64,000 nucleotides of DNA from Patescibacteria group bacterium (GTDB lineage: Bacteria > Patescibacteriota > Minisyncoccia > Minisyncoccales > PEYH01), in the NCBI GenBank assembly GCA_018900835.1, contig JAHIFQ010000004.1, positions 1-64,000 of the forward strand. The letters are read 5' to 3'. The notes under the pieces were generated by a model. It had not been told where the DNA came from and searched no databases. It was given only the letters and a program-made list of their open reading frames with translations. Both the position numbers and the translations under genes were made by a program. Of this stretch, positions 1,190 through 43,055 are shown one piece after another (position 1 is the stretch's first letter; the number at the start of each line of letters is the position of its first letter).

Positions 1190-1852
1190 ATGAAACCGAA
1201 ACCAAACGAAAAAAGAATAGTACAGTGCCTCAGGAAGCAAGGATTGAGCTATAATGAAATTCTGCAAAAGGTGCCAGTGACTAAAAGTAGCATTAGTTTT
1301 TGGTGTCAGGGTGTTGAATTAACACCTGAACAAAAAGAAAGGTTAAACAAAAAACGAGAAAGAAATTTGCAAAGGATCATAATCCTTGGACCAAAAGCCA
1401 TAGCCAAGAAAAGAAAAAAAGAAATTCACAAGATAAAAATTGAGGCAAAAAAAGAAATTCACTCCCTTGCCCCTTATGAATTTAAGATAGTCGGCGCAAT
1501 GCTATATTGGGCCGAAGGCAGTAAGAGTGGTGGCGTAGAAATTACCAACTCAGACCCAAAACTAATAAAATTTATGGTTCGCTGGCTTAAACAGGTTTGT
1601 GAGGCACAACCTGAAAGATTAAAGGCACGATTAAACATCCACGCCAATCAAAATGATAAAAAGATAAAAAAATATTGGTCTGAAATTACAAATATCCCCA
1701 TATCTCAATTTGGTAAAAGTTACATTAAACCAGAAGGCACGGGTCATAGGAAAAATATTCTAGATAATGGAGTAATTAGAATAAGATTTGGAAGCGAGGA
1801 TTTGCGCCACAGAATTATGACTTGGATTAAAGTATTATATCAATCGTTATGA
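1190..1852 (+). CDS. HTH + LAGLIDADG-like homing-endonuclease-like protein (paralog 1)
   Basis: An N-terminal helix-turn-helix (GLSYNEILQKVPV..SISFWC) is followed by G-AMLYWAEGSK (LAGLIDADG-like hxhxxEGS block) and NSDPKLIKFMVRWL. It is paralogous to the next ORF, with about 45% identity throughout. Confidence 0.4.
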   Translation: MKPKPNEKRIVQCLRKQGLSYNEILQKVPVTKSSISFWCQGVELTPEQKERLNKKRERNLQRIIILGPKAIAKKRKKEIHKIKIEAKKEIHSLAPYEFKIVGAMLYWAEGSKSGGVEITNSDPKLIKFMVRWLKQVCEAQPERLKARLNIHANQNDKKIKKYWSEITNIPISQFGKSYIKPEGTGHRKNILDNGVIRIRFGSEDLRHRIMTWIKVLYQSL

Positions 1853-2499
1853 AAAAATTATGGCAACTAAGAGAAAATGCTATAAAGCTAAGGAGGTTAG
1901 GTTGGGCTTATTCTGAAATTCAGAAGAAAGTGCCTGTTCACAAAATTACACTTAGCAAATGGTGCCGAGATATTGAACTAACCTCTCGACAAATTAAATC
2001 CCATGGAGGGAGGTATGCTAATCGTCTGAAAGGCGCAAAAGCCAATTGCCTTAAAAGGCAAAAAGAAATAATAAGAATTCAGAAAAAGGCAGAGAACGAA
2101 ATTCATATTCTTACTCCTTATGAACTTAAGATAGCTGGCGCAGCCCTATATTGGGGCGAAGGAAATAAATCTCATGGCTTGGCGTTCAGTAATTCTGATC
2201 CTGAATTAGTGAAATTTATGATGAAGTGGTTTCAAGAAACTTGCGAAGTGCCAAACAAAAAAATAAGAGCGTATCTTTATCTGCATACTGGACAAAATGA
2301 GAAAAAAATGCAAAAATACTGGTCGAGAGTAACAAATATCCCCTTAAATCAATTTAATAAAACTATTTTAAAAAAGGAGGGTTCGGCTAGTCGTAAATAT
2401 AGTCAAGACAAATATAAGGGCACAATAAAGATTCAAGTTCTAAATGAAAATTTAAAGCATAGAATACTTTCCTGGATTGAACAATTTAATTTTACTTGA
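1849..2499 (+). CDS. HTH + LAGLIDADG-like homing-endonuclease-like protein (paralog 2)
   Basis: Same architecture as the preceding ORF (GAALYWGEGNKS, NSDPELVKFMMKWF). Its start overlaps the stop of ORF1 by 4 nt (ATGA). Confidence 0.4.
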   Translation: MKKLWQLRENAIKLRRLGWAYSEIQKKVPVHKITLSKWCRDIELTSRQIKSHGGRYANRLKGAKANCLKRQKEIIRIQKKAENEIHILTPYELKIAGAALYWGEGNKSHGLAFSNSDPELVKFMMKWFQETCEVPNKKIRAYLYLHTGQNEKKMQKYWSRVTNIPLNQFNKTILKKEGSASRKYSQDKYKGTIKIQVLNENLKHRILSWIEQFNFT

Positions 2500-2542: not shown

Positions 2543-2615
2543 GCCCCCGTAACTCAACAGGTAGAGTGTCCGCCTCTTAAGCGGGTTGTTCCAGGTTCGA
2601 GTCCTGGTGGGGGCA
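2543..2615 (+). tRNA. tRNA-Lys (anticodon CTT)
   Basis: Full cloverleaf by hand: acceptor GCCCCCG/TGGGGGC, D-arm ACTC-AACAGGTA-GAGT, anticodon stem TCCGC/GCGGG with loop CTCTTAA, T-arm CCAGG-TTCGAGT-CCTGG, discriminator A. CCA is not encoded. Confidence 0.85.
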
Positions 2616-2664
2616 TATTCGCTACGCTCAAGTTAAAAATTAAAAGTTAAAAATAAAAAACAAA

Positions 2665-2692
2665 AATTACGAGACCGGGTCTCGTAATTTTC
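2665..2692 (+). terminator. Rho-independent terminator (perfect 11-bp stem ATTACGAGACC/GGTCTCGTAAT + TTTTC)
   Basis: The palindrome sits directly after the tRNA and is followed by a T-run. Confidence 0.7.
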
Positions 2693-2917
2693 TGGTTTGC
2701 TGTTGACAAAATCGTTGAGTTGATATATTATTACAATGTATTAAACATCGTGCATTACCCCCTCATCTTTTTCACCACCCGGAGTAGCTTGGGGAGGCGT
2801 CAATCCCTCCCCAGCTCTCAACTTGTTGGCGAGAAAGAAAAGGAGTTGTTCATTGTCAATTGATTTCGTTTTACACGCTCTTAGCACTGCTAAGAACGTT
2901 TTCCCTTTTAATAATCC

Positions 2918-2946
2918 TTGACACGAAAAACACCAAGCCATATAAT
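2918..2946 (+). promoter_or_regulatory. Perfect-consensus sigma70 promoter TTGACA-17nt-TATAAT
   Basis: TTGACA at 2918-2923, a 17-nt spacer, then TATAAT at 2941-2946. The predicted transcription start is about 2953. Confidence 0.6.
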
Positions 2947-2952
2947 ACAATT

Positions 2953-3122
2953 AGACATAGGGTTCCAAGAGGTTCTTTGTGGACCTTGTGCGACCTCCTT
3001 ACCAAAGACGCCCTGCTGGCAATCCCTTTCAGTTCTGCCAACTGTTTACCTGTCAGCAGTGGCGTCTCTCGCAAAGAACCAATTGCTCTTTTGTTAAGTC
3101 CTCTTCGGAGGACTTTTTCTTT
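2953..3122 (+). ncRNA. Structured ~170-nt RNA ending in a UUCG-tetraloop intrinsic terminator; candidate rpsO leader/attenuator or small RNA
   Basis: Long-range helices: GGUUCUUUG (2975-2983) pairs with CAAAGAACC (3072-3080). GACGCCCUGCUG pairs with CAGCAGUGGCGUC, 13 bp. The terminator is GUCCUC-UUCG-GAGGAC + U9 at 3098-3122. The small ORFs over this region (2741..3161, both strands) look spurious. Confidence 0.4.
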
Positions 3123-3166
3123 AAACTGTTGCTTTTTAAAAAATTTTCGTATACAATATAAAAACT

Positions 3167-3436
3167 ATGCTTACACAAAAAGACAAAGAAAAAATTATCA
3201 AGGAGCACGAGGTGCACAAGACCGACACTGGCTCACCAGAAGTCCAGTGCGCTCTTTTGACCACAGAAATCAAGCGCCTGCTTTCGCATCTTAAAAAGCA
3301 CCCAAAAGACCTGCATTCTAAGAGAGGGCTTTTGCAGATGGTTGCAAGAAGGCGGAGATTATTAAAGTATCTCCAGCAAAAAAATGTCAGGAGATACAAT
3401 GCCCTTATTAAAAAAATAGGCCTTAAGAAACGATGA
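3167..3436 (+). CDS. rpsO: 30S ribosomal protein S15
   Basis: 89 aa. Carries the S15 signature TGSPEVQ..LT..I..L..HLK.H.KD.HS.RGLL.MV.RRR.LL.YL. Confidence 0.9.
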
Positions 3437-3942
3437 AAAGCCAAAAACATCCAGACCAAAGAGTGGTTGTGTTGATAGACACTCAAAACTTGTATTACTC
3501 GGCAAAAAACTTATACCATTCTAAGGTAAATTTTGAAGAAATTTTGAAATTGGCAATAAGTGGAAGGCGGCTTGTCCGCGCTTTTGCTTATGTGGTTCAA
3601 ACCAAGACAGGAGAGGAAAAACCATTCTTTGAGGCGCTCACTGGTTTAGGTATTGAAACCAGGGTCAAACAATTGCAGGAATATTACGGAGGACTCAAAA
3701 AAGCGGACTGGGATGTTGGAATAGTGGTTGACGGCATCAGGGCATCTACTTCTGCGGATGTAATAATATTGGTTTCTGGAGACGGCGATTTTATTCCTTT
3801 TCTGGAATATCTGAAAAACCAAGGAAAAAGGGTTGAGGTAATCGCTTTCGGCCGGTCTACTTCTTCAAAAATCAAAGAAGAAGCAGACGAATTTATAGAC
3901 ATTGAAAAGGACTATAAAAAATATCTTCTTAAGAAAATTTGA
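3433..3942 (+). CDS. NYN/LabA-like (PIN-related) domain protein
   Basis: [12 protein letters not shown] ... [28 protein letters not shown] is a typical NYN-domain layout. It is inserted in the conserved rpsO-pnp pair. Confidence 0.7.
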
Positions 3943-20486: not shown

Positions 20487-20723
20487 CTCCTTGTATCTCT
20501 TTTTTTATTCTTTTGTGAAGGTACGACTCTACTATATGTAGAAACGGAGGATTCCAATGAATCTCCTTTGTTTCTTATGTCCATATTATACCAATAAATA
20601 CTTGCTCTGTCAACTTTTTTACAGGTTCCGATTCGTGTTCTTTGCTACCTGTTAATTTCTTTCTCTTAATTGCTGTGTTAAAATGGATTAAGATAAATTA
20701 GTATGATAAAATTATAGAACTAA

Positions 20724-40562: not shown

Positions 40563-41618
40563 CTATAATAATTTTGTATTTTGTATTTTTGATTTTGGAT
40601 TTATCCCAAGGTGCTCGTATGCCTTTTGGGTGGCTATTCTTCCCTTGGGGCTTCTTATAATCAAGCCGAGTTGCAGTAAATATGGCTCGTAGACCGCCAA
40701 GATATTGTCTTGTTCTTCGTTGGTTGAAGCAGCCAATGCCTGTAAACCAACTGGACCGCCATCAAATTTCCGAATTAGTATTTCAAGAATTTTTCTATCC
40801 TGCGGCTCCAGCCCCATTTTATCTATTTCTAATGCTGATAATCCCAATTCAGTTATTTCCTTGTTGATTCTTTTCATTCCTTCTACTTGGGCAAAATCCC
40901 GGATTCTTTTAAGGAGTCGGTTGGCTATGCGCGGAGTGAATCTTGAGCATTGGCTTATGAGCATTATTGCTTCATCGTCTATTTCTAAGCATAAAATATT
41001 AGCAGACCTTTTTATGATTTTTTGGACATCATCTTCAGAGTAGAACTCAACCTGAAAAGTGGCTCCAAACCGGTCTCTCAATGGAGAAGTGAGTAGTCCA
41101 ACCCTTGTTGTTGCTCCTATAAGAGTGAATGGGGGAAGGTCTATTTCTAAAGTTCTTGCCATTGGTCCAGTGCCTGTTATAATATGCAGCTTAAAGTCCT
41201 CCATAGCTGGATAGATAATTTCTTCGCATGTTTTATTTAAACGGTGAATTTCATCAACAAAAAGAACATCTCTTTCAGATAGAGATGTTAGAATTGCTGC
41301 CAAGTCACCTGGCCTTTGAATCGCAGGGCCGGTTATAATTCTTATATTAGAGCCAATACTTTTGGCAACTAAGCGCGATAAAGTTGATTTTCCAAGACCA
41401 GGTCCGCCGCAAAAAAGAAGGTGGTCAACCGCTTCTTTTCTTTCTTGGGCTGCTTGCAGGATAATCTGGATATTTTTTTTTATTCTCTCTTGCCCGATAA
41501 AGTCCCCCCATTGTTTTGGTCGCAGAGTTTGGTCTAATGTTTCTTCTTCTTTTGAATCAACATTGTTAAGCAATGTTTTCTTTTTTTGAGCAAATTCACG
41601 AGAGGGGTTGACAATCAT
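40563..41618 (-). CDS. ruvB: Holliday junction helicase RuvB
   Basis: AAA+ with GPPGLGKSTL, DEIHRL and a C-terminal winged helix. Confidence 0.95.
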   Translation of the reverse strand: MIVNPSREFAQKKKTLLNNVDSKEEETLDQTLRPKQWGDFIGQERIKKNIQIILQAAQERKEAVDHLLFCGGPGLGKSTLSRLVAKSIGSNIRIITGPAIQRPGDLAAILTSLSERDVLFVDEIHRLNKTCEEIIYPAMEDFKLHIITGTGPMARTLEIDLPPFTLIGATTRVGLLTSPLRDRFGATFQVEFYSEDDVQKIIKRSANILCLEIDDEAIMLISQCSRFTPRIANRLLKRIRDFAQVEGMKRINKEITELGLSALEIDKMGLEPQDRKILEILIRKFDGGPVGLQALAASTNEEQDNILAVYEPYLLQLGLIIRSPKGRIATQKAYEHLGINPKSKIQNTKLL

Positions 41619-41753
41619 TTTGTTATTTGTTATAATAAAAGCGATCCCTGGCTGCTTAGGGGTTTTTCTTAGCCCGGGTAAACTGGCTCCGGCTGGGTTA
41701 TTCCTCGGAAAAATTCTGGTCTTTGTTGCCTACGAAGATATGTAGTCAGGGAT

Positions 41754-43055
41754 TTAGTTTTCACTAGTGACTCTTTTCACTTCTTCTATTGTGGTTATTT
41801 GTTCGAGAACTTTTATCATTCCATCTTGGAACATCGTAATCATTCCGTTTTCGGCAATGATTTTTTTAATTTCAGGAACAGCTGGTTTTTTCACAATAAG
41901 GGACTCAAGCTGGTCATTGATTAAAAATGCTTCAAATATACCCTGCCGGCCCTTGTATCCGGTAAAACTGCATTCTTTACATCCTTTTATAACAGCCATT
42001 TTTATCGGCTCCTGAACAATGGAATTAGGAATATTTTTCATCACCCTTTTTATTTCTTCTGATTCTTCCGGTGTTGCCTCTCTTATCCCAGCGCATTTCT
42101 TACAAACCCTTCTAACTAATCGCTGGGCGATTACCATATTTATGGCTGGGCCGATATTAATAGGGTCAGACCCCAAAGATATCAAGCGGGGGATGGCTCC
42201 AGCTGCGTCGTTTGTATGCAGGGTAGAAAAAACGAGGTGTCCAGTGAGGGCTGCTTGAAGGGATATTTTTGCTGTTTCTAAATCCCTGATTTCTCCGACC
42301 AAGATTACATCAGGGTCTTGTCTTACTATAGAACGCAGTCCGCTCGCAAAATCATATCCTTGGCTAGGATTAACTTCTGTTTGAGAAGTGCCGTCAAGCC
42401 GATACTCAATAGGGTCTTCAATGGTGATGATTTTGATTTCTGGATTTTGAATATATTTTAAAAAAGCGTAAAGAGTGGTGGTTTTGCCAGACCCGGTCGG
42501 TCCTGTAACAATTATCATCCCATTTGGTTTTTTGATTTCTTTTTTGAACGACTCCAACAAATCCTGCCTTAACCCAAGTTCTTCCATGCTTTTTAAACTT
42601 TCTGGATTTAGAATTCTCATCACAACCGATTCTCCGAAATCCGCTGGCAGGGCTGATGTTCTGATTTCTATCTCCTGCTCTTTATTTGTTTTTGTTTGTA
42701 TGGCGATAGAGAAGCTCCCGTCTTGCGGCTTATTATGGACATTTAGTTTAAGGCCTGCAAGAAGTTTTATTCTGGAAAGAAGTAAGCGGTATGTTTCTGG
42801 GGGAAAAAACATTACATCATGGAGCATGCCGTCTAACCGTATCCGCAGACGGATATCTTCTTCTCTGGGCTCAAAATGAATATCAGAAGCAGATAAAGAA
42901 ATTGCGCCTAACAAAACCTTTTCAATAATTTTTGTTGTCTCTTCATTTATATTTTTTTCTAATTCTGCCTTAAAATCAGCCGTTGATTTTATCGCTTTTT
43001 GCATTTGTTCGGATATTTGAAGAGGTATTATGATTTTGTCAGTGATTTTTACCAT
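41754..43055 (-). CDS. pilB: Type IV pilus/type II secretion assembly ATPase (PilB/GspE family)
   Basis: Walker A VTGPTGSGKTTTLYAF, Asp/His boxes and a C-terminal tetracysteine (CKKC...CKEC). Confidence 0.85.
   Translation of the reverse strand: MVKITDKIIIPLQISEQMQKAIKSTADFKAELEKNINEETTKIIEKVLLGAISLSASDIHFEPREEDIRLRIRLDGMLHDVMFFPPETYRLLLSRIKLLAGLKLNVHNKPQDGSFSIAIQTKTNKEQEIEIRTSALPADFGESVVMRILNPESLKSMEELGLRQDLLESFKKEIKKPNGMIIVTGPTGSGKTTTLYAFLKYIQNPEIKIITIEDPIEYRLDGTSQTEVNPSQGYDFASGLRSIVRQDPDVILVGEIRDLETAKISLQAALTGHLVFSTLHTNDAAGAIPRLISLGSDPINIGPAINMVIAQRLVRRVCKKCAGIREATPEESEEIKRVMKNIPNSIVQEPIKMAVIKGCKECSFTGYKGRQGIFEAFLINDQLESLIVKKPAVPEIKKIIAENGMITMFQDGMIKVLEQITTIEEVKRVTSEN

Follow-up and report, generated by a model that had tools for sequence, protein, structure and literature searches.

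Gene Organization of the tRNA-Lys-rpsO Locus

The 64-kb stretch of DNA considered here (the window) comes from a metagenome-assembled genome of Patescibacteria (Candidate Phyla Radiation or CPR, Parcubacteria-like) and contains, immediately upstream of the ribosomal protein S15 gene rpsO, an element of about 167 nt referred to as RNA B. On balance, and with modest confidence, RNA B is read as an independent, species-specific small RNA that does not regulate rpsO. At the level of the sequence, this reading draws on a consensus promoter, an intrinsic terminator, a stable fold, the lack of an effective antiterminator, the absence of homologues and a conserved promoter that belongs to rpsO itself. 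The original prediction had left the choice between a cis-acting attenuator of rpsO and a stand-alone small RNA; the anatomy of the element, with its own promoter and terminator, no credible open reading frame (ORF) and a separate rpsO promoter downstream, fits the latter. The exact S15 protein of the window is also encoded by assembly GCA_018898995.1 (contig JAHIJA010000002.1) and by two further assemblies, and the three assemblies that carry RNA B are identical across the region of interest. The locus is organized as follows.

1190-2499 (+): two paralogous ORFs of unknown family
2543-2615 (+): tRNA-Lys(CUU)
2662-2692: bidirectional terminator hairpin
2703-2731 (+): promoter P1, TTGACA-17-TATTAT
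2703-2912 (+): RNA A unit, made up of P1, the RNA (~2738-2910) and a terminal hairpin (2875-2899) followed by a U-rich run
~2738-2910 (+): RNA A
2918-2946 (+): promoter P2, TTGACA-17-TATAAT, a 12/12 consensus match
~2953-3122 (+): predicted RNA B transcript, about 165-170 nt (~167), defined by its fold, with no Rfam match and no called gene
3129-3157 (+): rpsO promoter, outside RNA B and conserved across lineages
3167-3436 (+): rpsO
3433-3942 (+): NYN-domain gene
from 3961 (+): pnp

Promoter, Terminator and Predicted Fold of RNA B

The elements that delimit and shape RNA B are, from 5' to 3':

2918-2923 (+): P2 -35 element, TTGACA
2941-2946 (+): P2 -10 element, TATAAT, 17 nt from the -35 element
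2954-2982 (+): closing stem, 5' strand; pairing probability close to 1 for 2971-2981
2971-2982 with 3069-3080 (+): core of the closing stem, 12 bp (GGUUCUUUGUGG = 2971-2982)
2983-3005 (+): one-sided internal loop, opposite the single nucleotide 3068 (23 vs 1 nt)
3006-3021 with 3051-3067 (+): inner helix, 16 bp with bulged U3060; pairing probabilities close to 1
3069-3095 (+): closing stem, 3' strand, including CAAAGAACC at 3072-3080
3096-3122 (+): intrinsic terminator, from a terminator scan; formation probability ~1.0
3096-3103 with 3108-3115 (+): terminator stem, closed by a UUCG loop

The spacing of P2 places the predicted start of RNA B at about A2953/G2954. P2 had been described as the strongest promoter of the window; it is indeed a perfect match, a rank it nevertheless shares with two other perfect TTGACA-17-TATAAT sites, at 20585-20613 (-) and 41608-41636 (+). 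Sites with at most one mismatch number five in the window against 0.96 expected, a count reached by only one of 100 shuffled sequences. At the other end, the hairpin AAGUCCUC-UUCG-GAGGACUU (3096-3115, 8 bp, -11.2 kcal/mol) is directly followed by UUUUUCUUU, with the U-tract at 3116-3122. The UUCG-loop terminator recognized at the outset is thus present, and so is the distance of 45 nt that had been given between the end of its U-tract (3122) and the rpsO ATG (3167).

The predicted transcript has a minimum free energy (MFE) of -63.6 kcal/mol, with z-scores of -5.5 to -5.8, and none of 200 shuffled sequences was equally stable, in keeping with the earlier description of a highly structured RNA of about 170 nt (~167 nt, z about -5.5). 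Of the two helices first proposed, the 9-bp helix GGUUCUUUG/CAAAGAACC is found at 2971-2979 with 3072-3080 and extends to 12 bp; the second, given as 13 bp, also exists, but as 12 bp and the bulged U3060 instead of 13 contiguous pairs, and extends to 16 bp. An internal loop together with a 5-bp apical hairpin (3030-3034 paired with 3040-3044) forms the tip of this inner helix (region 3006-3067). Between the two long helices lies the large asymmetric internal loop that had been anticipated, with its 23 nt on the 5' side facing 1 nt on the 3' side; it contains ACCUCCUUA at 2993-3001, where ACCUCC is unpaired with a probability of ~0.9 and the UUA end with one of 0.5-0.9.

A Conserved, Proximal Promoter for rpsO

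The rpsO gene possesses a promoter of its own, which begins 7 nt after the U-tract of the RNA B terminator and consists of a -35 element TTGCTT (3129-3134), a 17-nt spacer and a -10 element TACAAT (3152-3157), followed by 9 nt up to the ATG at 3167. The arrangement TTGC(T/C)T-17-TA(C/T)AAT-9 nt-ATG is kept in nine lineages (that of the window, W, together with L001, L156, L074, L159, L176, L169, L171 and L075) independently of what lies upstream, and some lineages have only the tRNA terminator before it. A comparable TTGCTT/TTGCAT-17-TATAAT/TAAGAT promoter stands 6-7 nt before the rpsO ATG in L017 and L024, and other distant relatives have a TATAAT box 16-27 nt upstream of it. Because the promoter ends 9 nt before the ATG, the rpsO mRNA would be essentially leaderless; the region of the rpsO start (3129-3169) is without a Shine-Dalgarno (SD) sequence. 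In this clade, transcription of rpsO probably starts at the proximal promoter and gives an mRNA with little or no leader. The presence of this promoter right after the terminator also argues that RNA B is not an S15 leader. In the literature on leaderless initiation in Patescibacteria and on small RNAs or 6S RNA in CPR, nothing directly relevant was found.

Distribution, Known RNA Families and Coding Potential

GTDB species genomes and JGI metagenomes were scanned with S15 as anchor, which yielded 152 related loci; closer lineages came from an S15 search among 5.8 billion proteins and from nine look-ups of contigs by their S15 or NYN proteins. Neither nhmmer nor a single-sequence covariance model built from RNA B (over 357 kb) found RNA B outside the window's own population in 176 loci, and a second copy is missing both from the rest of the 64-kb window and from ~600 kb of sequence at related loci. 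The element is absent from relatives whose S15 is 88-92% identical: in the L002/L074/L161-166 and L157-160 lineages (S15 88-89%), RNA A is directly followed by the rpsO promoter, and in L074 and L159 the sequences that flank RNA B in the window are joined without it. The locus P0001 (S15 97%) belongs to the same population and has a local frame error. The comparison of orthologous rpsO upstream regions proposed with the original prediction therefore finds the helices not conserved and RNA B itself missing.

At the gathering score, Rfam 15 recognizes only two tRNAs in the whole window, and for the region 2620-3200 at E<=10 it gives only chance matches (AbsR25 and CRISPR-DR46, on terminators); the affinity to 6S RNA, signal recognition particle (SRP) RNA or S15 leaders that had been suggested receives no support from the Rfam covariance models even at this threshold. 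The RNA B fold contains no GNRA-capped helix of the kind found in SRP domain IV, its apical loop being CUGCC. Searches of phages and plasmids with blastn returned only short chance matches to RNA B, while exact 19-mer and 16-mer scans of viral contigs gave matches in coding regions, without extension. The earlier view of the segment as non-coding is upheld: no ORF overlapping RNA B has a significant Pfam match, no gene is called across it in the NCBI, ENA or Logan annotations of the three public assemblies, and the plus-strand ORF crosses the terminator.

A Fast-Changing Spacer between tRNA-Lys and rpsO

In at least 22 related loci, rpsO is preceded by a tRNA-Lys(CUU) gene; the distance between the two varies from 7 to ~570 nt, the median being close to 95 nt. 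The spacer of the window, at 551 nt, is among the largest and contains RNA A and RNA B in tandem. Homologues of RNA A (~170 nt, z -4.2) occur in two further species, represented by the L002/L074 and L157-160 lineages. The spacers of the L002 and P0004 species contain RNA A without RNA B (hidden Markov model E about 1e-42), and in L156 and L176 just the 5' end of RNA A remains. Among these homologues, the base helix of RNA A is conserved, the apical hairpins are specific to each lineage and the terminal hairpin contains some compensatory changes; the region has no conserved ORF. An alternative pairing is conceivable between the C-rich 5' end of RNA A (CCCCCUC) and the GGGGAGG arm of the apical hairpin. 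RNA A thus resembles RNA B in its location in the spacer, strand, size of ~170 nt, structured nature, terminal hairpin with U-rich tail, C-rich 5' part and near-consensus promoter; the two nevertheless share no sequence similarity, and RNA A occurs in three species whereas RNA B occurs in one.

In the closest relative, L001 (S15 92%, NYN 95%), a different structured RNA of ~190 nt (893-1086, identical in sequence to L073 875-1068; MFE -67.2, z -3.4) stands where the window has RNA A and RNA B; it is preceded by a P1-type promoter and followed by a terminator that contains CCUCC and looks like that of RNA B. This L001 RNA displays CCUCCUUU in a hairpin loop. By eye, it has in common with RNA B the islands CUGCUGGCA, AAUUGCUC and CCUCCUU and a similar terminator. 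An orthologous relationship was considered and rejected, the alignment scores of the two bodies falling within the distribution of shuffled sequences and the covariance model missing the L001 RNA. Four-fold sites of rpsO and NYN are still ~58% identical between L001 and the window, so the bodies of the two RNAs, which cannot be aligned, have been replaced and have not merely drifted. To the eye, only the terminator and the flank with the rpsO promoter look homologous between the two genomes.

Small insertions are visible in several related spacers. In the L002 species, a 60-bp palindromic element resembling a miniature inverted-repeat transposable element (MITE) is inserted in the -35 element of P1, flanked by duplicated GTTGAC and bounded by 12-bp perfect terminal inverted repeats (CCCGTTAGAAAA...TTTTCTAACGGG). 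It is present at L074 1194-1253 and L002 2694-2753 and also in L161 and L163-L166, is absent in L162 and is therefore polymorphic between strains of one species; the window does not have it. A tandem-repeat insertion of ~70 nt (GAGGACGGACCUCGGGGGAGG, two copies), flanked by duplicated AAAAACT, lies between the rpsO promoter and the ATG in L174 (~1225-1295) and also in L175. In L019 (2740-3000) and L020 (340-700), 3' halves of tRNA-Lys are duplicated upstream of rpsO, a signature of integration or excision at tRNA-Lys that is consistent with the spacer serving as an insertion hot spot. The tRNA-Lys-rpsO spacer is a fast-changing hot spot with active small insertions.

Alternative Explanations for RNA B

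Were rpsO controlled in cis by RNA B as an attenuator or leader, perhaps in response to S15, transcription from P2 would either stop at 3118-3122 or continue into rpsO by means of an alternative fold. RNA B does lie on the same strand as rpsO, 45 nt upstream, and the unrelated L001 RNA, at the equivalent place, likewise exposes CCUCCUU and has CCUCC in its terminator. The alternative pairing between loop and terminator on which the original prediction had based an antiterminator-like arrangement exists as five contiguous pairs, CCUCC/GGAGG, but does not make a workable antiterminator: it would have to capture the terminator's 3' arm, a kinetically unfavourable requirement, and forcing it raises the free energy from -63.6 to -55.3 kcal/mol, a cost of 8.3 kcal/mol. 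Its ensemble probability is accordingly ~3e-6, compared with ~1 for the terminator hairpin. Structured RNAs upstream of rpsO and on its strand are known as S15 leaders (the E. coli pseudoknot, the three-way junctions of Geobacillus and Thermus, and others in Rfam), and RNA B is similar to them in these respects; however, it is separated from rpsO by a terminator and a conserved promoter, stops short of the start codon, does not accompany rpsO in related loci and matches none of the S15-leader families, and neither its MFE fold nor its centroid fold contains a three-way junction. Known S15 leaders, moreover, act on translation and not on termination. The S15 motif of 16S helix 22 is G-U/G-C, and the sole GG/UC step seen on inspection of RNA B (G3018-C3054, G3019-U3053) has the opposite order. 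With rpsO probably leaderless and RNA B missing upstream of the orthologous rpsO genes compared, control of rpsO by attenuation is very unlikely. A bulged pairing of 12 bp that the loop could form with codons 15-18 of rpsO, noticed by eye, was also dropped, as it is not among the best matches in a window-wide duplex scan. Highly improbable, too, is a diverged protein-binding housekeeping RNA, either a 6S-like decoy of RNA polymerase or an SRP-like RNA, that would have escaped the Rfam models. Patescibacteria RNAs are poorly represented in Rfam, and RNA B recalls 6S genes (about 170-190 nt) in outline through its ~167 nt, its long hairpin interrupted by a large loop and its strong promoter. Yet 6S RNA needs both strands of its bubble open while that of RNA B is open on one strand only, a domain-IV-like motif is lacking, 6S, SRP and all other families are unmatched at E<=10, and a housekeeping RNA should occur in the close relatives, from which RNA B is absent.

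Least probable of all is that the segment encodes a small protein, either a 60-aa ORF from GTG 2979 (+) or a 67-aa ORF at 3074-2871 (-). The former is the only ORF with an SD-like start (AAGAGG, 6 nt before the GTG) and the latter has a hydrophobic stretch with a weak match to TMEM171 (E 0.06); the plus-strand ORF, however, extends across the terminator and has its SD-like motif sequestered in the closing stem, no promoter was found for the minus-strand ORF, SD sequences are hardly used in this genome, the relatives have no homologous DNA, and Pfam and the public gene calls are silent on both. The main rival is instead a recent insertion, function-less or selfish, in which an imperfect palindrome of ~200 bp would have landed beside a pre-existing -35-like hexamer and be transcribed incidentally. 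The restriction of RNA B to one species, the plasticity of the spacer across the 22 loci, the polymorphic MITE-like element in P1 of the L002 species and the L174 repeat insertion with its duplicated AAAAACT all favour such an origin, as does the fact that both strands fold equally well, as those of a DNA palindrome would. L074 retains 'cTGACAtcg' at the left junction, so part of the -35 element either predates or outlasts RNA B. Set against this are the lack of a second copy in the window and related loci, the absence by eye of clear terminal inverted repeats or of a target-site duplication at the junctions, and the combination of a perfect 12/12 promoter at 17-nt spacing with a UUCG terminator, which exceeds what an accidental insertion would be expected to bring. 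RNA B was specifically considered as a MITE and discarded, being single copy, with no inverted repeats and no duplication and with only a 6-nt GAAAAA/TTTTTC symmetry at its ends. An insertion of this kind is unlikely, though it carries more weight than the other alternatives.

RNA B as a Candidate Trans-Acting Small RNA

In the preferred reading of RNA B as an independent small RNA, the sigma-70-type consensus promoter P2 would drive the synthesis of a stable, structured non-coding RNA of ~167 nt, the intrinsic terminator would end the transcript and rpsO would be transcribed separately as an essentially leaderless mRNA. RNA B would thereby be made and accumulate, and it may act in trans, most plausibly by base pairing of the exposed C-rich loop ACCUCCUUA with GGAGG-type sequences. 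The exposed motif is complementary to GGAGG-type ribosome-binding sites and presumably identical to the anti-SD motif in the 3' tail of 16S rRNA, if the E. coli 16S 3' end is taken as a guide (the host's 16S gene lies outside the window).

Small RNAs with C-rich loops or anti-SD motifs are known from Firmicutes, in particular the streptococcal csRNAs and RsaE/RoxS, each with its own sigma-70 promoter and Rho-independent terminator. Like them, RNA B is intergenic and non-coding, has a consensus promoter and a terminator hairpin within the RNA and exposes a C-rich motif able to pair with GGAGG-type sites. In contrast to them, RNA B carries the motif in a one-sided internal loop and not between two hairpins, resembles no Rfam family in sequence or by covariance model, is limited to one species and belongs to a host that rarely uses SD sequences; it is also about twice as long as the csRNAs. 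By analogy, trans-acting pairing of the loop with GGAGG-type sites is suggested, but the case is weak, and this mechanism accounts for about a quarter of the confidence placed in the independent small-RNA reading.

Several observations weigh against that reading or its anti-SD component. The reverse strand of the RNA B region folds almost equally well (-62.1 kcal/mol), so the transcript is assigned to the plus strand by its promoter and U-tract and not by its fold. RNA B has no homologue in the loci searched, its three carrier assemblies are identical, and restriction to a single species is also what a young and possibly function-less insertion would show. As for the anti-SD component, an SD-like motif precedes the first ATG in only 4 of the 70 ORFs of at least 120 codons in the window, and a scan for duplexes of the loop across the window gave chance-like matches only, rpsO not being one of them. 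Upstream regions in the window are AT-rich, often with TATAAT- or TACAAT-like boxes close to the start, which suggests that SD-less or leaderless initiation is widespread in this genome.

RNA B is an orphan candidate without comparative support, albeit of the familiar type of small-RNA gene that runs from promoter to terminator. A broader idea is that the spacer is a site of birth and turnover of small RNA genes, in which RNA B and the L001 RNA would be convergent anti-SD mimics that selectively silence the few SD-led mRNAs in a host where most genes lack an SD sequence or a leader. It builds on the presence, under consensus promoters, of unrelated structured RNAs (RNA A, known from three species, RNA B, from a single one, and the L001 RNA) and on the CCUCCUU motif resembling the 16S 3' tail, located in the exposed loop of RNA B and in the terminator of the L001 RNA, and is decidedly speculative.

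The reduced genomes of CPR bacteria are thought to carry little regulation. If expressed, RNA B would join a very short list of candidate regulatory small RNAs from Patescibacteria, and its locus would exemplify the rapid gain and loss of small-RNA genes beside a tRNA; its value is limited by the lack of comparative support. More informative are some by-products of the analysis, namely the probably leaderless rpsO with its conserved promoter, the fact that no S15-type leader was recognized at this locus and the SD-poor character of the genome, to which may be added RNA A with its presence in three species, an orphan RNA candidate located at 41640-41755 and element turnover next to tRNA-Lys.

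Further Elements of the Window

This orphan RNA candidate (~115 nt, 41640-41755) is preceded by the third perfect promoter, at 41608-41636 (+). It is predicted to fold with a closing helix AUCCCUGGCUGC/GUAGUCAGGGAU and three inner hairpins (MFE -50.6, z -3.65) and has no Rfam match at E<=10. With a second orphan structured RNA behind a perfect promoter, such units would appear to be a feature of this organism.

Upstream of tRNA-Lys, the ORFs at 1190-1852 and 1849-2499 (+) are tandem paralogues of 220 and 216 aa without a match in Pfam, NCBIfam or PDB. Both are retained, likewise upstream of tRNA-Lys, in the L002 species. A motif common to both, 'LYWAEGSK / LYWGEGNK', is reminiscent of LAGLIDADG-type endonucleases.

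The remaining perfect promoter opens the segment 20613-20470 (-) and leads into a 5' untranslated region of ~110 nt with a hairpin GGAGAUUC-AUUG-GAAUCCUCC, after which a clear SD sequence of the kind rare in this genome, AAGGAG (~20476), stands ahead of a membrane-protein gene; this hairpin may be a cis-regulatory element.

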